DNA from: an uncultured Gammaproteobacteria bacterium
GTDB taxonomy: Bacteria > Patescibacteriota > Microgenomatia > Daviesbacterales > UBA10151
Length of the DNA: 64,000 bases
Direction of reading: 5' to 3'
Assembly (NCBI GenBank): GCA_964504985.1
Contig: CAZDFU010000001.1
Span: forward strand, 21,752-85,751
In this document: positions 1 through 47,536 of the stretch, one piece after another
Layout of the letters: every line of letters starts with the position of its first letter
How positions within the stretch are numbered: the stretch's first letter is position 1
The notes under the pieces: model-generated
Seen by the model: the letters and a program-made list of their open reading frames with translations, nothing else
Database searches by the model: none
Told to the model about the DNA's origin: nothing
Program-made: the position numbers and the translations under genes

Positions 1-572
1 ATTACAGCTTCTTTGCCTATTTTTTTCAGTTTATCCAAAATTCTAATTGCCTCAATAGGTATTCCCTCAAAAACTTTTCTGTCATTTATTAAAACTTTAA
101 AGTCCTTAAAACCTAAGGATTCTAAAGATTTAACAACACAATTAATAATTTCTGCATCAGCCAAAGGGGTATTAAGGCCAACAGTATCAATATCACACTG
201 CAAAAACTCTCTAAATCTCCCTTTTTGGGTGTTCTCAGCCCTCCAAACAGGCTGTATCTGGTATCTTTTAAAAGGGGTGGGGAGCTGGTTTAAATGTTGA
301 GCTGCAACACGCGCTAAAGGTACAGTCTGGTCATACCTTAAAGCAACCCTTCTTTTCCCGTTATCTTCAAACCTATACATTAATTTATCACCTTCTTCAC
401 CATATTTACCCAGAAGTATTTCTTCATACTCCAAAGCAGGAGTTTCCAGGGGTTCAAAACCAAATGATTCAAACACCTTTTTCAAGGCATTTATGACATA
501 TTGTCTTTTCATTGCTTCAGAAGGCAAAAAATCCCTAAATCCTTTTAATGTTTGTATTTTTGATTTATCCAT
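1..572 (-). CDS. hisS: histidyl-tRNA synthetase, N-terminal part (continues beyond window start)
   Basis: Minus-strand translation from ATG at 572-570: MDKSKIQTLKGFRDFLPSEA...RYDQTVPLARV...FKRYQIQPVWRAENTQKGRFREFLQCDID, the HisRS class II motifs. It follows a long-form hisG, so a HisZ paralog is less likely but not excluded. Confidence 0.6.
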   Translation of the reverse strand, partial: MDKSKIQTLKGFRDFLPSEAMKRQYVINALKKVFESFGFEPLETPALEYEEILLGKYGEEGDKLMYRFEDNGKRRVALRYDQTVPLARVAAQHLNQLPTPFKRYQIQPVWRAENTQKGRFREFLQCDIDTVGLNTPLADAEIINCVVKSLESLGFKDFKVLINDRKVFEGIPIEAIRILDKLKKIGKEAV

Positions 573-577
573 ATATT

Positions 578-922
578 TTAGTCAAAACAACTCCATTTTC
601 CTGGTATGTGACATGTTTCACCAACAGGATTAGCTTCGATTAGTAGTGTATCATTATCACAGTCTAGCTGCATAGATAGAACCCTTAAGAAATTTCCTGA
701 GGTTTCTCCCTTTGTCCAAAGCTTTCTTCTTGTTCTTGACCAAAAGGTAACTTTACCAATTTCTAAAGTTTTAGCAAACGCTTCTTCATTCATAAAACCA
801 AGCATAAGCACTTTTCCTGTTATTGTTTCCTGAACAATTGCAGGAAGTAGATTTATCCCAGTTTCAGGATCTGCTATTTTTAAAAAATCTGGTTTTAGTT
901 CACTTTCTCTCATATTAATCAC
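578..922 (-). CDS. hisI: phosphoribosyl-AMP cyclohydrolase
   Basis: 114 aa with a [40 protein letters not shown] core typical of HisI. Confidence 0.8.
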
Positions 923-938
923 CCCCTTCCTTTAAACC

Positions 939-1934
939 TTAACTAATTGCAAACGGTGGAATTGGTAATCTCCAGCTCTCTCCATAAATTATTTTCATCA
1001 TTCTGGTTGTTTCAGGATCATCAAGATCTGGGATTAGACGTTCAATTGGATTTATAAAAATAGCACGGGCTCCTAGAAGTAACAATCTTTCAATAGTTTC
1101 ATTTTCAGAAGCTTTAGGGATAAGCGTTTCTGCAGCTGACCAGCCTTCTTTTTCCAAAGGCATTTTAGTAGGTGATTCCCGGGTGGGTATATCATTCATA
1201 ATTTCCCGTTCCTGATTTTCGGGGAAATCAAATTTAAGAACTCTATATTGAGTATTCCAAACACCTGTCATAACAGCTCTTAATGTTCTCCATACTATTG
1301 CTTGTGAACCTCTTATATTAGGTAAATCAGGATTAGCAATTAAAACAGCTTGTGAACTTAAAACATCAGCAACTGGTCTAATATTATTAACAATCATGGA
1401 CATACCTGTATCAGATGCTTCTATACAAGCTTGAGCCCAGCCTCTCTTTACTGCTGTTTCTGCGCCCCCATCATATTTTCTAATATTTACATCTATCCCA
1501 AAGCTTCCGAAAAACCTCCTTGTTCCAATTGGGTAACTTGTAGCTATTGTTAACCCTGCTAAACTTTCAGGTTGTAAGTAAGGAATATCATTGCGGACTC
1601 CAAGTTTTAAACTACAGAAACTAAAACCAAGTTCTTTTAGAACAAGGGGAGGAGTTCCATATGAATATTCACCGTATTTATCTAATCCCACTACTCCTAA
1701 ATCAGCTTCCCCCTCAGCAACTGCGCGGGTAATATCCCCATTTCTCATTAAAATGATGTCTAAGCCTTCTATATTAGTTGGACCATCATCCACTCTGTTT
1801 GGTAATTTCCATTTCAAGCTTCCTGCTTGTAATAAAGCAGCAGTTTCATCCCCCAGGTTGGTTTTACCCGTTGGTTTTTGTATTGCTATTGCTAATTTTT
1901 TTTCTAAATTGCTCATAAAAAAACTCCCGTTCAT
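939..1934 (-). CDS. hisG: ATP phosphoribosyltransferase, long form with C-terminal regulatory domain
   Basis: LAIAIQKPTGK...IATSYPIGTRRFF...DTGMSM... plus a C-terminal HisG_C-like region; 331 aa. Confidence 0.8.
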   Translation of the reverse strand: MNGSFFMSNLEKKLAIAIQKPTGKTNLGDETAALLQAGSLKWKLPNRVDDGPTNIEGLDIILMRNGDITRAVAEGEADLGVVGLDKYGEYSYGTPPLVLKELGFSFCSLKLGVRNDIPYLQPESLAGLTIATSYPIGTRRFFGSFGIDVNIRKYDGGAETAVKRGWAQACIEASDTGMSMIVNNIRPVADVLSSQAVLIANPDLPNIRGSQAIVWRTLRAVMTGVWNTQYRVLKFDFPENQEREIMNDIPTRESPTKMPLEKEGWSAAETLIPKASENETIERLLLLGARAIFINPIERLIPDLDDPETTRMMKIIYGESWRLPIPPFAIS

Positions 1935-1937
1935 TAT

Positions 1938-2172
1938 TCACCACCCAAATAGGGTAATGAACAAGGAACGAGAGGTTAATCCATTAAAAAAGGACCTCCC
2001 GCGGTCCCATCCTGTTTCCCTGTACCATTACTGGTACGGGGCTCTTAGTGGCGACTCTACGGTTATCGTGACATCGTCTGTTGTATTTTACAGTTCAACT
2101 TCTGGAATACATTTTTGTATTCAGCTGGTGGATCGTGACTCCACTCATAACGCTTTTTAGATATTTAATTGT
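1938..2172 (-). promoter_or_regulatory. T-box riboswitch leader, probably tRNA-His responsive, upstream of hisG-hisI-hisS
   Basis: ~235-nt leader between a sigma70-like promoter and hisG. The minus strand contains ...ACAGGAUGGGACCGCGGGAGGUCCUUUUUU, resembling the T-box consensus AAUUAGGGUGGNACCGCGG; the UGGG bulge would pair with an NCCA end carrying discriminator C (tRNA-His). A CAC triplet in the upstream stem region is a candidate specifier. A terminator/antiterminator arrangement is present. Confidence 0.5.
1986..2008 (-). terminator. intrinsic terminator (T-box terminator arm)
   Basis: Minus strand reads GGGACCGCGGGAGGUCC followed by UUUUUU: GGACC/GGUCC stem plus a U-tract, just upstream of the hisG start. 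Confidence 0.55.
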
Positions 2173-2178
2173 AAAAGC

Positions 2179-2206
2179 AGTATATCATATAAAAAGAATT
2201 TGTCAA
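2179..2206 (-). promoter_or_regulatory. sigma70-like promoter for the T-box/his leader
   Basis: Minus strand: TTGACA, a 16-nt spacer, then TGaTATACT (extended -10). Confidence 0.45.
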
Positions 2207-2230: not shown

Positions 2231-2749
2231 TTAACGTAATCCACCCCCCAGGTGAATGAATCTTCGGATTTTAACTCTGATTCTGGTTATCTTTTCCCAG
2301 CTTACAATCCTAAGGTCTGTGGCAACTCTGGTGAAGATATCTTTTATGGGGTCAACCCAGTAAATTTCTCCGTCCAGGGATTTGAAATTTTCAGGATGAA
2401 GTTCGCATTTGTCAGCCAAAAATTGAGAGCGGGCACAAAGTGTCTCCAAAGGATTAGCAATGCTTTGATCGTCCTTTATAAGATCTTGAATAATCACATA
2501 TGATTTACCCATGCCTTTCACTTTTGAATTTGGTAAATGAACCTTTTCCAAGTTTGAGGTTAGCTCTTGGGCAAATCTTAAATCACTTCTGATAACATTT
2601 GCAGGGGCTTGCCTGGTAAATGTTCCATAAGTAAGCAGCAATAAATGATGCCAAAACCTGGGTACTTTTAAAAGTTTGTCAGGATGGTTAGATGATGCCT
2701 TCCAAACAATATGCTCATGCCCCTTATCAAAAAATACTCTTTCTCCCAT
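2231..2749 (-). CDS. hypothetical protein
   Basis: 172-aa ORF with no recognisable motif; it fills the gap between the his leader and the downstream gene. Confidence 0.45.
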   Translation of the reverse strand: MGERVFFDKGHEHIVWKASSNHPDKLLKVPRFWHHLLLLTYGTFTRQAPANVIRSDLRFAQELTSNLEKVHLPNSKVKGMGKSYVIIQDLIKDDQSIANPLETLCARSQFLADKCELHPENFKSLDGEIYWVDPIKDIFTRVATDLRIVSWEKITRIRVKIRRFIHLGGGLR

Positions 2750-5414: not shown

Positions 5415-6782
5415 ATGCCTCAGGTAACTAAACTTCCGCCTCAGAATATAGAAGCAGAACAATCTTTATTGGGGAGCTTGCTTATTGATAAAGATTCAAT
5501 TGTACGGATTTCAGAAATAATACACCCTTCTCATTTCTACAGAATAGACCAACATGGACCAATTTTTGAAGCAGTCCAATCTTTGTTTGAGAAAAGAGAG
5601 CCTGTTGATCTGGTGACAGTTACAGAGGAGCTAAAAAGAAAAGGCCATTATGATAAGATTGGCGGGTCAGCTTATCTTACAACCCTTGTTAATACTGTTC
5701 CAACCTCAGCCCATATTGAACATTACGCTAGGATTATAAAAGCCCATGCAGTCAGAAGGAACTTGATTGTCCAGGCCACTAAATTAATTGAAAGGGCATA
5801 TAACGAATCTGAGGATGTTGATCAGCTTTTGGAGGCTGCTGAAGCAGGTATTTTTGCGATATCCCAGGAACATGTCAGCCGTGACTTTTTGCCTATCAGA
5901 GAGGCTTTAACTCAATCTTTTGACCGCTTGGATGAATTGCAAAAATCTTCTGGAAAACTCCGCGGGGTTCCAACAGGCTTTAGGGATTTGGATAGTAAAC
6001 TGGCAGGCATGCAAAATTCAAATCTGATAATTTTGGCTTCAAGGCCCGGTCAGGGAAAAACTTCCATGGCTTTAAATATTGCCCAATATGTGGCAGTTGT
6101 GGCTGGGCTGCCTGTTGGAATTTTTTCTTTGGAAATGAGCCAGGAAGAACTGGTTGATAGATTATTGATAGCCCAGGCTGATATTGATGCCTGGAAACTT
6201 AAAACAGGCAGATTAGATGAGAGGGATTTCGATAAACTTTCTTTGGCAATGGGTGAATTGGCTGAGGCACCTGTTTTTATTGATGATACCCCAGGGATTA
6301 CCATTTCTGAGATGAGGACAAAGGCCAGAAGGCTGCAGATTGAACATGGATTAAGATTCTTGATTGTGGATTATCTGCAGCTTGTTAAGGGAAGAAATTT
6401 GGAAAACAGGGTGCAGGAAGTTTCTGAAATTTCCCAAAACCTTAAAAATTTGGCCAGGGAGTTGAAGATTCCAGTTTTAGCGATAAGTCAATTATCAAGA
6501 GCTGTTGAACAAAGAGGTACCAGAAAGCCTCAGCTGGCAGACCTTAGGGAGTCTGGAGCTATAGAGCAGGATGCAGACGTGGTGATGTTTATTTATAGGG
6601 AAGATCCAGAAAGGATGGAGTTGGTTACCCTGGATATTCAAAAACATAGGAATGGGCCTGTTGGAGAGGTTTCATTAATGTTTAGGGCTGATAGGACTAA
6701 GTTTTATGGTTTGGAAAAGGCCAGGAGTATAACTAAGCCTGCCTCAGAGAAAGAATCTAAAGAAACTCCAGTTGCTGCTTAA
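5415..6782 (+). CDS. dnaB: replicative DNA helicase DnaB
   Basis: N-terminal LPPQNIEAEQSLLGSLL, Walker A GQGKTS and the RecA-like C-terminal domain; 455 aa with no intein. Confidence 0.9.
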   Translation: MPQVTKLPPQNIEAEQSLLGSLLIDKDSIVRISEIIHPSHFYRIDQHGPIFEAVQSLFEKREPVDLVTVTEELKRKGHYDKIGGSAYLTTLVNTVPTSAHIEHYARIIKAHAVRRNLIVQATKLIERAYNESEDVDQLLEAAEAGIFAISQEHVSRDFLPIREALTQSFDRLDELQKSSGKLRGVPTGFRDLDSKLAGMQNSNLIILASRPGQGKTSMALNIAQYVAVVAGLPVGIFSLEMSQEELVDRLLIAQADIDAWKLKTGRLDERDFDKLSLAMGELAEAPVFIDDTPGITISEMRTKARRLQIEHGLRFLIVDYLQLVKGRNLENRVQEVSEISQNLKNLARELKIPVLAISQLSRAVEQRGTRKPQLADLRESGAIEQDADVVMFIYREDPERMELVTLDIQKHRNGPVGEVSLMFRADRTKFYGLEKARSITKPASEKESKETPVAA

Positions 6783-9564: not shown

Positions 9565-10128
9565 ATGGCATTAAATGTTAATGAACTTAGAAATGGGACT
9601 TTTTTCAAGGAAGGAAAAGAAATTTTCTTAGTTGTAACTTATGAGCATGTTAAAACCGGCAGGGGTTCAGGTAATATTAAACTTAAAGTAAGAAACCTAA
9701 GATCAGGGGCTGTGGTGGAAAAATCTTTTATAACTGGTGCAAGAGTTGATGAGGCAAATGTTGAAAAGAAAAAAGCTCAATTTTTATACAGAGATGGAGA
9801 TAGTTTTAACTTCATGGATCCCGCTTCCTTTGAACAATTTTTAATTTCCTCTTCAGTTATTGGTGAGCAGGCAAAATATTTAAAAGAAGGCCTGGAAGTA
9901 CTTTTAATAGTTTCAGAAAATGAGGCATTGGGTTTAGAATTACCTTTAAGTTTAGTTTACGCAATCTCTGAAACTGGGCCAGGAGAAAAAGGGAACACTG
10001 TTTCTAATGTTTTCAAAGAAGCTATATTAGATAATGGATTGGTTGTTAAAGTCCCTATGTTTATGAGGGTTGGAGAAAAAGTAAAAGTTGATACAAAAAC
10101 CGGACAGTATGTGGAAAGGGTAAAATAG
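9565..10128 (+). CDS. efp: elongation factor P
   Basis: MALNVNELRNGTFFKEGKEIFLVVTYEHVKTGRGSGNIKLKVRNLRSG, classic EF-P N-terminal KOW-like domain. Confidence 0.85.
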   Translation: MALNVNELRNGTFFKEGKEIFLVVTYEHVKTGRGSGNIKLKVRNLRSGAVVEKSFITGARVDEANVEKKKAQFLYRDGDSFNFMDPASFEQFLISSSVIGEQAKYLKEGLEVLLIVSENEALGLELPLSLVYAISETGPGEKGNTVSNVFKEAILDNGLVVKVPMFMRVGEKVKVDTKTGQYVERVK

Positions 10129-10200: not shown

Positions 10201-11094
10201 ATGGCTAAAAAGATAACCAAGGCTTTAATACCTGCTGCTGGTTTTGGGACAAGATTTTTACCTCAGACCAAGGCCATGCCTAAAGAGATGCTTCCTATAG
10301 TTGATAAGCCTGTTATCCAATATGTGGTGGAAGAAGTTGTGGCCTCAGGGGTTAATAATGTAATCATAGTAACAGGTGCTACCAAAAGAGCAATTGAAGA
10401 TCATTTTGACAGTCCTTCTGAAGGTTTGATCCAAAACCTAAAAAATGGTAATAAGAGTGAGCTGCTGGAACAAATAGAACATATTTCCAACATGGCAAAT
10501 TTTATCTATGTCAGACAAAAAGGCCTTTATGGAAATGGTACTCCTGTATTGGCAGGGGAATCAGTAATAGAGGACGAACCTTTTGCAGTGCTTTGGGGAG
10601 ATGAATTTATTGCTGCAAACCCTCCCAGATTAAAACAGATGATTGAGGTTCATGAGAAATATGGGGGTATGGTTATTTCTGGCGTAAAAATTGAAAAGAA
10701 AGAAGATTTAAAAAGGTATGGAATAGCAGATTTAGAATTGGTGGAGGGGAATGTTTTTAAGATAAAAAAGATTGTGGAAAAACCAGACCCGGAGGCTGCC
10801 CCCTCAAACATAGCTACTCATGGGGCATATATCCTGCCTCCTGAAATTTTTGGAGCTTTAAAAAGTCTAAATCCAGGTCAGGGTGGGGAGATATGGTTAG
10901 TTGATGCTATAAATAAACTGAAAGATGAGGGGGTTCCTTTATACGCTGTAGTAGTAAAAAATGGTAAATATTATGATACTGGTAATAAATTAGAATATAT
11001 GAAAACAGTGGCGGAGTTGGCAATTGATCATCCGGAAGTAGGAAAAGAATTTAAAAAACATCTGCAAACCTTAGTGGAGAGTTCTAAGAACTAA
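10201..11094 (+). CDS. galU: UTP--glucose-1-phosphate uridylyltransferase
   Basis: KALIPAAGFGTRFLPQTKAMPKEMLPIVDKPVIQYVVEE GalU signature. Confidence 0.85.
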   Translation: MAKKITKALIPAAGFGTRFLPQTKAMPKEMLPIVDKPVIQYVVEEVVASGVNNVIIVTGATKRAIEDHFDSPSEGLIQNLKNGNKSELLEQIEHISNMANFIYVRQKGLYGNGTPVLAGESVIEDEPFAVLWGDEFIAANPPRLKQMIEVHEKYGGMVISGVKIEKKEDLKRYGIADLELVEGNVFKIKKIVEKPDPEAAPSNIATHGAYILPPEIFGALKSLNPGQGGEIWLVDAINKLKDEGVPLYAVVVKNGKYYDTGNKLEYMKTVAELAIDHPEVGKEFKKHLQTLVESSKN

Positions 11095-11514
11095 TACTAT
11101 CCCCCCAACTGTGACTGCTTGGGTTAAAATCCCCCAAGGGAGTTTAACATTAGATTGTATTTTATGCTGCCATTTGTAAGCTGTGGAAAAAGGAGGGAAG
11201 TTCCAGCTAAATAGCAAGTAGGGCATCATCAAAATATCCCACATTTCAGAGAATAAAATACAAGTTAGTAAATAAATTGGGTTAGTGAGGTTGCCAAATA
11301 TCAAAAAGGCTAAGGCTATTCCTAGGATTAAATCAAAAACAGATTCTAAAAATAAAGTGAACTTATTTTTTTTCCTCCAACCCAGACCTAAGTCCCAGTG
11401 AGGGATCATATCTAAAATAGGGTGGGAAAGGGAAGCAAGGGGTAAGGCTATAGCAGGGTTGGGGACATATGCTGCGATTGCCCCTCCAACTAATGCATGC
11501 GCGGTTGCTGTCAT
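11071..11514 (-). CDS. integral membrane protein (possibly membrane-bound metal-dependent hydrolase-like)
   Basis: Hydrophobic, 4 TM helices, with H...D..PH.D-like residues near the N-terminus. Confidence 0.35.
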   Translation of the reverse strand: MTATAHALVGGAIAAYVPNPAIALPLASLSHPILDMIPHWDLGLGWRKKNKFTLFLESVFDLILGIALAFLIFGNLTNPIYLLTCILFSEMWDILMMPYLLFSWNFPPFSTAYKWQHKIQSNVKLPWGILTQAVTVGGIVLVLRTLH

Positions 11515-30969: not shown

Positions 30970-33900
30970 TTATGATCCTATTTTTTCTTTAGAAGACACA
31001 ACTGTTGCTGCTGCTACCCTCTCTCCTGTCCTTACCCTCATTAATATTACTCCCTGGGTTTGTCTTTGCAGGGTTGGAACCTCTTTTAGATCCATTTTTA
31101 TAAGTTGTCCTTTGGTAGAAGTTAAAACTAATGTATCCATTAAGGGGTTTATGGCTTGGGCTGTCACAATAGGCCCTGTTTTGGTTGTAACCTGGGCAGC
31201 TTTAACGCCTTGTCCTCCCCTCCCCTGTTTGCTCCAGCTGGAAAACTTGGTTTTTTTACCCAATCCATTTTCCATTATAACCAAAAGTTCATCATCCTGG
31301 TTTTCTATAAAAGTCAGGGATACTACTTCGTCTGACCCACTAAGCCTTATTCCCCTAACCCCTGAGGTATCCCTATGAGTTGGTTTAACCTGTGATTCTG
31401 AGAAACGGATTGATTTTCCGCCTCTTGAGACTATAATCAAATCATCTTTCCCAGAGGTGGGACAAACCCAGCCCAACTCATCATCTTTATCAAGTTTAAT
31501 TGCTACCAGGCCGTTTTTGCGGATATTGGCATATTCAGTTATGGCAGTCTTTTTAACAGTGCCTTTTTTAGTGCACATGAAGAAAAATTTGGCTGCTTCC
31601 TCTTTTTGGCGGGTTGTTAAGACAGCGGTAACTTTTTCCCCCTGTTCAATATTGATTAAATTAACCACAGCCTGGCCTTTTGCAGCTCTTTGGGTTTCAG
31701 GAATCTCCCAGACTTTAATCTGAAAGACTCTGCCTTTGTCTGTGAAAAATAAAATACTGTCATGAGTTTGGGTATAAAAAATATGTGAAACAGCATCTGT
31801 GTCCTTGGTTGATATACCCATTACCCCTTTGCCACCGCGCTGCTGGGTTCTAAAAGAGTGTGGTGATTGTCTTTTGATATACCCGCCTTCTGTAATGGTT
31901 GCAATTGTTGTCTCATTTGCCACCAAATCTTCTTCTGAAAACTCCCCAACTTTTTGTTTATAAACCCTGGTTCTTCTATCATCTGCATATTTTTCCTTAA
32001 TTTTTATAAGTTCATCTTTAATTACTTTAAGGATCTTTTCTGGATGTGCTAATAAATCTTCCGGATAGGCAATGGTTTCCCTTACCATTTTTAACTCATC
32101 CTCAATTTTTTGTCTTTCCAAAGCAGCAAGACGCCTTAGCTGCATATCCAAAATGGCAACAGCCTGGATTTCTGTTAATTTGAATTTATCCATCAAATTC
32201 TGTCTTGCAGAATCAGCATCCTTGGATTTTTTAATAGTCTCAATAACTTCGTCGATATTATCAACTGCAATTTTTAGCCCTTCCAAAATATGTTCCCTGG
32301 CTTTGGCTTCTGCCAGTTCAAATTCAGATCTTTTGGTGACAACTACAATTCTATGATGGGTAAATTCTTCTAAGATTCTTTTTAAGGTTAAAAGATGAGG
32401 CACTCCATCTGAAAGGGCTACCAGATTAACATTAAAAACCGACTGCATGGACGTATATTTGTAAAGATTATTTAAAATAGACTGTGGCTTGGCATCCCTT
32501 TTTAGGTCAAAAACAATCCTGACCATTTGTTTTCTGTCTGATTCATCCCTTAGATCTGCAATGCCTTCTAATTTTTTATCTTTAACAAGGTCTGCAATTC
32601 TGGCAATTAAGGTTGCTTTATTTACCTGGTACGGCAGCTCGGAAACAATAATCTGCATTTTTCCCTGTGGTGTTTCATCTATTTCTGCTTTGGCTCTCAT
32701 AACTATTCTGCCCTTACCAGTAGCATAAGCTGATAAAATTTCTGTTTGATCATAAATAGATGCGCCTGTAGGAAAATCTGGGCCTTTAATAAATTGCATC
32801 AGGTCCTCAACATTTGCCTCAGAGCGGAAAACTTTATCAGAATGAGGTTGTTCACCTGAATTTTCAGGAGCTTGAGGTTTTAATTTAGCATCTGGTTTTT
32901 CTGGATGCTCTATTAGATAAATCAAAGCATCACATACCTCCCCCAGATTATGAGGCGGGATTTGAGTAGCCATACCAACAGCAATACCAGAGGCTCCATT
33001 TAAAAGTAAGTTTGGTATAACAGAAGGCAGGAGTATTGGTTCTTTGGTTGTTCCAGAATAATTATCAATAAAATCAACAGTTTTTTTATTTATATCCCTT
33101 AAAAGCTCATCAGCTATGGCAGATAATCTAGCTTCAGTATTATGGTTTATAAAACCATTTCCTACAAAAGAATGACATTTGCTGTCTACTTTTAAAGAAT
33201 ACACAGTTTGAATTCCACCGTCTTCTATTTGGGAGACAGAATCAAATAGGTAATTATTTGAAATTAAATGTTCAAATAATAATTGGGTATCGAGTTTTAA
33301 AGTTGGTATAACAGTTGGCACTATCTGGCTATAATTTGAGGTTAAATTAGCATAGCGGTCAAAATTATGTTTTATAGCAAATTCACGTTTGACATAGGAT
33401 AAATTATGGTCTAACTGGCCTAGAACATATTTTCTTAAGAAAGGGACATAATCCAAAAGTGATGAATCTTTATGTAAGGAAAATAATATTTTTTCTAATT
33501 TCCCATTTTTATGTTCAGATAAAAAACCAATTTCTCTTTGGAATAACCTGTAATTCCTAAGACCTCTTATATATAACTTATGAGTTGACCTAAATTTATC
33601 AAATCTTTTAGTTGAGGCAATACCAAATCTTAAAAGGATAATTTGTAATTGACTAATAAGCTTTTCACTTACAGATATAGCTGATAACTCAACCATTTTT
33701 ATACTGCTGCTTATACTTCCATCACCTTCAAAATAAGCCTGCAAAAATCTAGCAACTACTTCTTTAGAAGATTGTAGGATAACTTGAGGGATTTCTTTTT
33801 GTGCTGCTTTAAGAGGGTTTAAGCCTAGGTTTTTCAAAAACTCAATAATATATAAACTATGGATCTCTAATCTATAATATGGTTTCTTACCATAAGAGCT

Positions 33901-34842
33901 TGGTTGTTTTAAAAATTTATGTAAATGACAATCAGGGAAAACCTCTTTCCAAATCATCTCAAATTCATTTATCCAGTTTTCATCACTGTTGCAAAATTCA
34001 ATTTTTTTCTTTCCTACATATCCTTCTGAAATAAGTGCCCCCAGAATATATGCTAAATCAGAATTTAAAGTTTTTGGTAAAATTTTAACCTCAGTCCTAT
34101 AACTTGGATCTTTAGGAATGAATTCCTTTAGAGATATTTCCCCTGTTGGCCAGATGAGATCTGAGGTTCTATCGATAACAGTTATATCCCCTTTTCCGAT
34201 TTGACTAAGTAGTTTCCATTTATACTCAGGTTTACCGGTAATTGGATTTTTAACCCATGTTAACAAAGGATGATTATGAGATCCTTGAATGGTAAATCCC
34301 TGGTTTGTTGTAATCTTGATTGTTGGGTGATGGCCACTATCAAACCATTTTGAAGTTTTATTAATAGTGCGGTTTCTGGAAAGTATTGATGTTTTAAAAT
34401 CCTCTGATTGATTTGGTGAAATATCTTTAATTTGTTGAAGACCTTTTTCAGTAACTATTAAAGTATCACCAGTAATGCAATACCGCATGGCTGCTGGTGA
34501 ATCCCCGTCAATTGAACCAAAATTTCCCTGGCCATCAATTAGCATATACCTCATAGAAAAATTCTGAGCCATTCTAACCATAGCCTCATAAACAGGGGCA
34601 TCTCCGTGTGGATGAAGATTTTTCAAAACTTCTCCCACCACTGCTGCAGATTTTTGATACCTGGAGGTATGGTGCAGGCCTTGTTCAGACATGGCAAAGA
34701 TAATTCTTCTTTGAACAGGTTTAAGGCCATCTCTTACATCAGGCAAGGCACGGGACACTATAACGCTCATGGCGTAATCCAGATAGGATTTTTGCATTTC
34801 TTCAATAATAGGAGCTGGTTGAACTTTTCCGATATTTGCCAT
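30970..34842 (-). CDS. gyrA: DNA gyrase subunit A, interrupted in-frame by an intein
   Basis: 1290-aa ORF; exteins total 843 aa with GyrA motifs (active-site region ...[16 protein letters not shown]|TEARL...). An intein sits between AMRY and TEARL. Confidence 0.9.
33139..34479 (-). mobile_element. GyrA intein (447 aa) with LAGLIDADG homing-endonuclease domain
   Basis: Begins CITGDTLIV (block A) and ends VGNGFINHN followed by extein T (+1 nucleophile). Internal [14 protein letters not shown] and [20 protein letters not shown] motifs. Boundaries checked against codons at 34477-34479 (TGC) and 33139-33141 (AAT). Confidence 0.85.

Positions 34843-44250: not shown

Positions 44251-47536
<3,286 letters not shown>

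Follow-up and report, generated by a model that had tools for sequence, protein, structure and literature searches.

What regulatory element stands in front of an isolated hisG-hisI-hisS cluster at the edge of a 64-kb stretch of DNA from contig CAZDFU010000001.1 (the window, in what follows), and do these three genes represent a partial histidine pathway? The leader of the cluster, about 255 nt long (about 2172-1917) and encoded on the minus strand together with all of the his genes, is very probably a T-box riboswitch that responds to tRNA-His and belongs to a structural subclass of its own; it would control transcription readthrough into hisG-hisI-hisS. The initial annotation, made from the letters of the window alone, had proposed a T-box leader specific for tRNA-His, and this proposal is borne out by an alignment to the Rfam T-box model RF00230 that lies below the threshold score, by a CAC specifier, by a UGGG bulge and by covariation among related leaders.

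Recognition of the leader as a T-box

A sigma-70 promoter had also been noted ahead of the leader, and it is indeed present at 2206-2179. It consists of TTGACA (2206-2201), a 16-nt spacer and the extended −10 element TGATATACT (TG-n-TATACT, 2187-2179), with a match to the consensus at 11 of 12 positions and with the TG of the extended −10 element included. Transcription would start near 2172. The same promoter is kept in the syntenic locus of a Daviesbacteria contig (L006), and similar promoters are found in the related contigs L064, L065 and L067.

The RF00230 scan that had been suggested as a check gave a divided answer. At the gathering score there is no RF00230 match in the window, where the sole Rfam match at threshold is a tRNA-Leu, and there is none in 20 related loci with complete leaders. 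A permissive local scan of positions 1850-2300 (451 nt) gave a match of 33.8 bits, compared with the gathering score of 93, with E=6e-6, and an independent second copy of the leader in L003 scored 34.0 bits. The alignment spans the full model (positions 1-219), with Stem I reduced from 75 to 6 model positions. The low score comes from Stem I, where six nucleotides stand in for the 75 model positions, and from Stem II, which lacks the S-turn positions; the failure at the curated threshold, which the initial annotation would have taken as grounds to give up the T-box, thus reflects a truncated Stem I and not the absence of the element. The Stem I motif of this leader, AAGCGTT-N7-GAGTCACGATC, occurs once in the window and in none of 100 shuffles, and the leader folds much more stably than shuffled sequences do (z = −5.4). 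A his attenuator with a leader peptide was considered and dropped, as the leader contains no run of His codons. The pattern RTGGNACCRCG, searched across the window and some 400 kb of related loci, turned up no T-box of another specificity.

The comparative evidence comes from a family of such leaders. The HisG protein of the window falls in a small clade (P0001-P0017, 46-100% identity) that is set apart by a wide gap from other HisG proteins, to which it is about 33% identical, and homologous leaders are present on the contigs of clade members L003, L004, L005, L064, L065 and L067. HisG homology led to further leaders in L003, L004, L006, L064, L065 and L067, and a metagenome scan with the Stem I motif yielded 56 contigs with about 50 true leaders. 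The leader type thus recurs in about 50 contigs, and the nearest named relative is a genome of the Candidate Phyla Radiation (CPR), namely Daviesbacteria. The window is syntenic with L006, a contig of a Candidatus Daviesbacteria metagenome-assembled genome, with identities of 80% for HisS, 87% for DnaB and 60-73% for other neighbours.

For the analysis of covariation, 23 compact full-length leaders were aligned. The antiterminator-state structure is 93.1% paired in this alignment, with 21 pairs altered on both sides, and its covariation score of 0.359 compares with 0.138 in shuffles, none of 500 of which reach it. When the partners were slid by 1-3 columns, the pairing dropped to 47% or below. 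The terminator-state structure is 91.8% paired, and the base helix of its terminator (T2, below) is 99.5% paired, with three pairs altered on both sides.

The decoding module

Stem I (2154-2123) is ultrashort. At its base is a helix of 3 bp (AGC/GCU), and above this an asymmetric internal loop leads to a hairpin of 5 bp (GUGGA/UCCAC, 2144-2128), the helix of which is 98.2% paired in the alignment with both-side changes at three of its five pairs. The apical loop of 7 nt, GUCACGA, resembles an anticodon loop and carries the His codon CAC at 2137-2135, which is the specifier that the initial annotation had led one to expect. The same loop is present in the loci that were reached through protein homology alone (L003, L004, L006, L064, L065 and L067). 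The long Stem I with its interdigitated T-loop elbow platform is absent, its 75 model positions being replaced by a loop of 6-7 nt, and no family member has a longer Stem I. A tandem G-A at the base of Stem I shows no clean consensus in the leader alignment.

Stem II (2122-2105) is a short hairpin without an S-turn, with 4-6 bp and a 6-7-nt loop in the family (loop consensus CCAAAUA); all five of its pairs show both-side changes, and the RF00230 S-turn positions are deleted in the alignment to the model. It is followed by the Stem IIA/B pseudoknot (2104-2080), in which helix IIA (CAG/CUG) reaches 98.6% pairing and shows GC/AU exchange; the loop GUUG is matched by a downstream CAAC, and the pseudoknot pairs covary as well. 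The sequence resembling the F-box is CUGUAA in the window and CCGUUA or CCGUAA in its relatives. The linker between the pseudoknot and Stem III holds an extra helix, here called Stem X (2078-2050), which is non-canonical for T-boxes and shows up as inserted sequence in the alignment to RF00230. Its internal loop, with UGU facing GAG, hardly varies, and the helix is 90.6% paired with three pairs altered on both sides. The possibility that Stem X is a displaced Stem II S-turn was ruled out, since the flanking pairs covary as Watson-Crick pairs.

The purines AAGAG (2046-2042), which hold the RAG motif and are invariant or almost so across the leaders, precede the Stem III hairpin (2040-2018; the two together occupy 2046-2018). 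The length of Stem III is too variable for counts by alignment column, and it was therefore folded sequence by sequence: a hairpin of at least 4 bp is found in 35 of 35 distinct leaders, whose sequences here are unrelated, with a mean dG of −8.7 compared with −2.7 in shuffles.

The antiterminator and two hairpins

The antiterminator (2013-1964) is built from helix A1 (AGGA/UCCU), a 7-nt bulge (UGGGACC), helix A2 (GCGGGAGG/CCUCUCGU) and a 19-nt loop. The T-box sequence proper, AGGAUGGGACCGCG (2013-2000), agrees with the T-box consensus AGGGUGGNACCGCG except at the fourth base (G to A). Its UGGG (2009-2006) is invariant across the leader alignment. The 3' partner of both A1 and A2 is the strand CCUCUCGUUCCU at 1975-1964 (CCUCUCGU-UCCU). 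A1 is 100% paired among the 23 leaders, with both-side changes at two of four pairs, and A2 is 97.3% paired, with such changes at three of eight.

Two hairpins with U-runs overlap this structure. T1 (2008-1986) is a small hairpin, GGGACC/GGUCCU followed by U6, that lies inside the antiterminator loop and has the acceptor-binding bulge as its 5' strand. It is found in 34 of 37 complete leaders in either of two pairing registers, with GGGACC or ACCGC as the 5' strand and U5-9 after it, and it is kept in L048 despite a 26-nt insertion in its loop. T2 (1974-1917) consists of a 22-bp interrupted hairpin (1974-1924) and a U7 run (1923-1917), and it takes the 3' strand of the antiterminator as its own 5' strand; the family has a conserved GAACGGGAGG-U6-8 at this place. 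The 3' strand of T2 carries the hisG Shine-Dalgarno sequence GGGAG (1928-1924), and its U-run abuts the hisG AUG. By calculation, the antiterminator has an energy of −12.5 kcal/mol, T1 of −10.2 and T2 of −32.6; in most family members T1 ranges from −7 to −12.6 kcal/mol.

The strand at 1975-1964 can thus pair either with 2013-1995 or with 1934-1924, and covariation backs both alternatives. Alignment positions 185 and 186 covary with their A2 partners at 161 and 160 and also with their T2 partners at 233 and 232, as is expected for a two-state switch. The initial annotation had pointed to a GGACC/GGUCC hairpin with U6 as the terminator: the hairpin and its U6 are there, as T1, but T1 is not the terminator of the switch, as it lies upstream of the 3' strand of the antiterminator.

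A U-run of five to eight residues, usually six to eight, follows T2 in every member, including those in which T2 stands ahead of a tRNA gene or of a distant Shine-Dalgarno sequence. In L052 the tRNA-His gene begins 1 nt past the T2 U-run, and in L026, L051 and L014 the regulated gene has a separate Shine-Dalgarno sequence 20-40 nt further downstream. As the U-run persists even in these cases, transcription termination appears as the conserved output of the family. A GGGAG or GGGAGG in the 3' strand of T2, with the U-run and then the AUG after it, is shared by the window and about a dozen relatives.

A model of the switch and its alternatives

In the mechanism proposed here, the anticodon GUG of tRNA-His would pair with the CAC specifier. 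When the tRNA is uncharged, its C73-C-C-A end would pair with UGGG and stabilise the weak antiterminator against T2, leading to readthrough, and when it is charged it would be unable to pair with UGGG, so that T2 would form and transcription would stop at 1923-1917. With GGGAG inside the 3' strand of T2 and the AUG right after the U-run, refolding of T2 on a full-length mRNA would also block translation and may provide a second layer of control. T1 would form first, sequestering the acceptor-binding bulge, and would be displaced once the 3' strand of A2 has been made. It is most likely a hairpin-stabilised pause or a weak early terminator, a speculative role read from the sequence. A pause at T1 would buy time for the docking of the tRNA anticodon, given a leader without the platform for fast elbow binding, and this speculative role fits the kinetic argument made for T-boxes in the literature (PMC7583486).

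It would be quite improbable, on the evidence at hand, for this to be an ordinary T-box with the GGACC/GGUCC + U6 hairpin (2008-1986) as its regulated terminator. That hairpin and its U-run are real, pass a terminator scan and are kept in the 34 of 37 leaders already mentioned, and the 5' strand of T1 is the acceptor-binding bulge, so the tRNA 3' end might, in principle, pair there in direct competition with the hairpin. The 3' strand of the antiterminator (1975-1964), however, emerges only after the T1 U-run has been transcribed, and a canonical antiterminator therefore cannot pre-empt T1. T1 is also weak in the window, as its computed energy indicates, while the 5' strand of the far stronger T2 also belongs to the antiterminator, with which T2 covaries, and three complete leaders that are without T1 still have T2. 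Scarcely better placed is the idea of a mainly translational T-box like the actinobacterial class with ultrashort Stem I, in which the 1974-1924 hairpin would be a sequestrator of the Shine-Dalgarno sequence instead of a terminator. Such Stem I elements have so far been tied to translational T-boxes (PMC7583486), and the position of GGGAG (1928-1924) within the 3' strand of the hairpin, with the AUG 7 nt on, would suit sequestration, as would the GGGAGG-U7-AUG layout in about a dozen relatives. The U5-8 run after the hairpin is nonetheless present in every member, including the leader before a tRNA gene in L052 and those with a separate Shine-Dalgarno sequence in L026, L051 and L014, where only transcription termination can regulate.

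Several observations weigh against a terminating T-box specific for tRNA-His. The curated Rfam threshold is missed by a wide interval (33.8 compared with 93 bits), and the distal Stem I platform, which is important for transcriptional T-boxes according to the literature (PMC7583486), is absent from this leader. A K-turn at the Stem I base shows no clear conservation, with UGA opposite CA in the window and GUA opposite GA in most relatives. That the CAC loop never varies among the 56 metagenome loci was built into the search pattern, which leaves the six loci found through their proteins as the independent ones. The tRNA-His C73 is normally paired with G-1 (PMC7778990), and pairing of UGGG with CCCA would therefore need that pair to open. 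The proposed role of T1 has to contend with its absence from three complete leaders, which are that of L024 and the internal second leaders of L003 and L067; the explanation that leaders without T1 are always internal to an operon was rejected, as L024 has its own promoter. Finally, tRNA binding, a response to the charging state and a stop of transcription at T2 are inferences.

The match to tRNA-His and the histidine regulon

The initial annotation had read the UGGG bulge as complementary to a tRNA with discriminator C, and this holds for the tRNA-His genes that could be read in related loci just downstream of the leaders: all seven have the anticodon GUG and C73, the acceptor stem is regular and includes G-1 in six of the seven, the L003 tRNA-His having two mismatches there, and CCA is encoded in four. 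The genes for tRNA-His(GUG) lie within the controlled operons in nine loci, namely L003 (1822-1895), L026, L030, L039, L041, L052, L054, L065 (about 6120-6195) and L067 (11818-11891), and there is no tRNA-His gene in the window itself. Where tRNA-His sits in the operon, the riboswitch would regulate the gene of its own ligand. The genes downstream of the leaders are hisS in 25 loci and hisG in 13, and also hisD, hisC, hisB, hisH, hisA, hisF, hisI and hisE; together, these downstream genes form a histidine regulon.

Other proteins recur right after the His leader and are candidates for histidine-related functions. They are encoded at L014 (3674-5590), L049 (2345-4520), L059 (7778-8632) and L018 (13357-14478), by the first open reading frames of L052, L020 and L040, and in L007, L021, L024 and L042. 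Several of these proteins have no Pfam match, among them a pair of 398 and 238 aa, a pair of 445 and 277 aa, a 284-aa protein and a 373-aa protein. Other proteins adjacent to leaders are an M20 peptidase and a protein of about 230 aa that looks DapF-like on inspection of its sequence by eye. A gene of the LOG family (LDcluster4) stands between hisG and hisS under the His T-box of L067 (11215-11787), and a 182-aa protein that resembles the LOG-family product, as identified by eye and not by a Pfam scan, follows the leader in L022.

Two further arrangements of leaders were seen among the related contigs. In L003 (1-77 and 1429-1770) and in L067 (about 9640-10000 and about 10985-11190), two His T-box leaders are placed in series within one operon, and the internal copies are without T1. 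A second class of leaders is present in L004/L005, L012, L016, L023, L028 (5263-5440), L045, L053/L061 and L060. These have the full decoding module, with the CAC loop, Stem II, the pseudoknot and the extra helix, and are without UGGG, the 3' strand of the antiterminator and T2. A single T1-like hairpin with a U-run is left in them (none is visible in L045), and the next gene, or the one after it, is mostly hisS.

Comparison with known T-boxes

The canonical transcriptional T-boxes described by RF00230, such as the tyrS and glyQS leaders of B. subtilis and the his leader of Lactococcus lactis, share many features with the leader of the window. In both, the specifier codon fits the regulated pathway, the UGGN bulge fits the tRNA discriminator, and an antiterminator of the A1-bulge-A2 form shares a strand with an intrinsic terminator; a Stem IIA/B pseudoknot with an F-box and a Stem III flanked by purines are likewise common to them. 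The leader differs from the canonical form in its 5-bp Stem I with the codon in the apical loop and without the specifier internal loop, the AG bulge and the distal loop, in its Stem II without an S-turn, in the extra helix before Stem III, and in the extra hairpin and U-run within the antiterminator loop. Transcriptional T-boxes generally need a long Stem I with an interdigitated T-loop platform so as to capture the tRNA fast enough (PMC7583486). Translational actinobacterial T-boxes typically have an ultrashort Stem I that carries the specifier in its apical loop, for which a long Stem II S-turn compensates (PMC7583486, PMC11297988), and an ultrashort Stem I has been viewed as a hallmark of slower, reversible translational switches (PMC7583486).

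With the actinobacterial translational ileS T-boxes (Sherwood, Grundy and Henkin 2015), for which PMC7583486 and PMC11297988 describe structures from M. tuberculosis and N. farcinica, the leader has in common the apical-loop specifier, the short Stem I, the absence of the elbow platform, a decoding that depends on elements downstream of Stem I, and insertions atop helix A2. The ileS T-boxes have a Shine-Dalgarno sequestrator, a long Stem II with an S-turn and a purine string, and specificity for Ile, whereas the family of the window leader has a terminator with a hairpin and U-run, a short Stem II and specificity for His, and occurs in CPR-type genomes. Two features that define class II T-boxes are accordingly not found here: instead of a terminator-free sequestrator, each member has a hairpin with U5-8 after it, and the long Stem II with its S-turn and purine string is lacking. 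The class II model of the T-box database TBDB was run only on Actinobacteria or on sequences already detected by RF00230 (PMC7778990). Lineage-specific structured insertions into the terminator/antiterminator domain are also known from Stem Sa of the staphylococcal glyS T-box and from other discriminator insertions (PMC9177973, PMC7583486). Unlike glyS Stem Sa, the insertion here pairs with the tRNA-binding bulge and has a U-run, so that it looks like a terminator or pause signal.

A literature search on T-boxes in CPR/Patescibacteria, or upstream of tRNA genes, found nothing relevant in what is an incomplete searchable literature, and the architecture of the leader is apparently undescribed. 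A broader claim, which we would hold with no stronger conviction than its opposite, is that CPR-type contigs harbour a previously undescribed class of T-box that terminates transcription with an ultrashort Stem I, no elbow platform, an extra helix and an early hairpin and U-tract serving as a pause or checkpoint, a class that would control a tRNA-His gene in several genomes and a stable hisG-hisI-hisS operon here. The combination of an ultrashort Stem I, an intrinsic terminator and a conserved hairpin with a U-tract at the very spot where a pause would be useful makes these leaders a natural test case for the kinetic argument. The family also places T-boxes in a CPR-type lineage, where gene regulation is almost unstudied and where the curated Rfam threshold misses all of them. 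It includes several cases of a T-box that controls the gene for its own tRNA ligand, and the recurrent proteins of unknown function in its histidine regulon could be guided in their annotation by the link to histidine.

The gene set under the leader

The gene identities given at the outset, a long-form hisG, a hisI by itself and hisS, are supported by Pfam and NCBIfam. The hisG gene (1916-939) encodes the long-form ATP phosphoribosyltransferase of 325 aa, identical to P0001, with HisG and HisG_C domains. It aligns end to end with the solved long-form enzymes 7dah and 1h3d and retains the phosphoribosyl pyrophosphate (PRPP)-loop motif. Its start is placed at the ATG at 1916 on the strength of the database protein P0001 and the conserved N-terminus, in preference to the mechanical reading-frame start at 1934, which lies inside the terminator stem. 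The hisI gene (913-578) encodes phosphoribosyl-AMP cyclohydrolase of 111 aa, with PRA-CH alone and no HisE domain. The last gene, at 572-1, encodes the N-terminal 190 aa of histidine-tRNA ligase and is truncated by the window edge; it scores 224 bits with TIGR00442 compared with 122 bits for hisZ, which makes it hisS, and its product is 80% identical to the HisS of L006, L040 and L048. The gaps are 25 nt between hisG and hisI and 5 nt between hisI and hisS. The his genes had been described as fused to the synthetase gene, which is mistaken, as the genes are separate and merely adjacent within one operon.

The earlier observation that neither hisE nor hisA is nearby proved correct for the whole 64 kb. 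When the 64 kb were compared with all open reading frames of the related loci and, by phmmer, with the E. coli His proteins, none of hisA, hisB, hisC, hisD, hisF, hisH and hisE was found in the window, and only hisG and hisI matched His enzymes there; as positive controls, the same queries recovered hisD, hisC, hisB, hisH, hisA and hisF in L019, L043, L047 and L065. It had also been suggested that the his genes might be decaying remnants. This is unlikely for the window, as the ratio of nonsynonymous to synonymous substitution rates (dN/dS) relative to L063 is 0.12 for hisG (dS 0.69) and 0.17 for hisI (dS 0.35), values that indicate purifying selection on both genes. Real decay can be seen in L006 (5895-6320; Candidatus Daviesbacteria MFCX01000032), in which the 3' domain of the T-box and most of hisG are deleted, leaving the promoter, the 5' half of the leader and a 90-aa hisG fragment before an intact hisS.

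The arrangements in related loci range widely. In L047, a single leader precedes hisG-C-D-...-H-A-F-I-E. In L065 the order is hisG, tRNA-His, a hisG-like gene and hisD, and in L003 it is hisE-hisG, a second T-box, tRNA-His and hisE-hisI-hisS. The window and L063 have hisG-hisI-hisS, L067 has hisG, a second T-box, a LOG-like gene, tRNA-His and hisS, and L004 and L048 have hisG-hisS. This series looks like a stepwise reduction of an ancestral T-box-controlled his operon beside hisS, and the gene set of the window is most simply a reduced derivative of that operon. The hisG-like gene of L065 (6221-6979), between tRNA-His and hisD, is a very divergent second copy (252 aa, E=1e-6 to E. coli HisG) that exists besides the 331-aa HisG of the clade.

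Two accounts of the gene content of the window have to be set against each other. The ordinary one, to which we give a little under an even chance, is that the remaining genes (hisE, hisA, hisF, hisH, hisB, hisC and hisD) lie elsewhere in the genome and that hisG-hisI-hisS is one of several units. Purifying selection on hisG and hisI, the intact PRPP loop and end-to-end alignment of HisG with solved enzymes, the position of a same-clade HisG ahead of hisD in L065, and the near-complete his operons under the same type of leader in L047 and L043 all favour it, but the remaining genes are absent from the 64 kb and also from the 10 kb downstream in L003, L004 and L067, the nearest relative with a name is a member of the CPR, where biosynthesis is known to be reduced (PMC11665869), and the syntenic L006 has its hisG down to a fragment. 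The other account, a serious though somewhat less favoured possibility, is that the later steps have been lost and that HisG, with or without HisI, HisE or the LOG-like enzyme, is kept beside HisRS for another purpose or for a metabolic hand-off to a host or partner. It draws on the adjacency of hisG to hisS without late genes nearby in five arrangements (window/L063, L003, L004/L048, L067 and L065), and on purifying selection at a dS of 0.35-0.69, which implies that the arrangement is old; with hisE missing from the window, even steps 1-3 are non-contiguous. Against it stand the absence of direct evidence for another function, the inability of 64 kb to show that genes are absent, and the tie between this HisG clade and hisD in L065.

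Other features of the window

The window has a G+C content of 36.9%. Directly upstream of the leader promoter and on the same strand is an open reading frame of 172 aa (2231-2749, minus strand) with no Pfam or NCBIfam match. Further along the window, gyrA contains an intein that bears a LAGLIDADG endonuclease domain, and gyrB contains a mini-intein (30970-34842 and 44251-46836, respectively, both on the minus strand).

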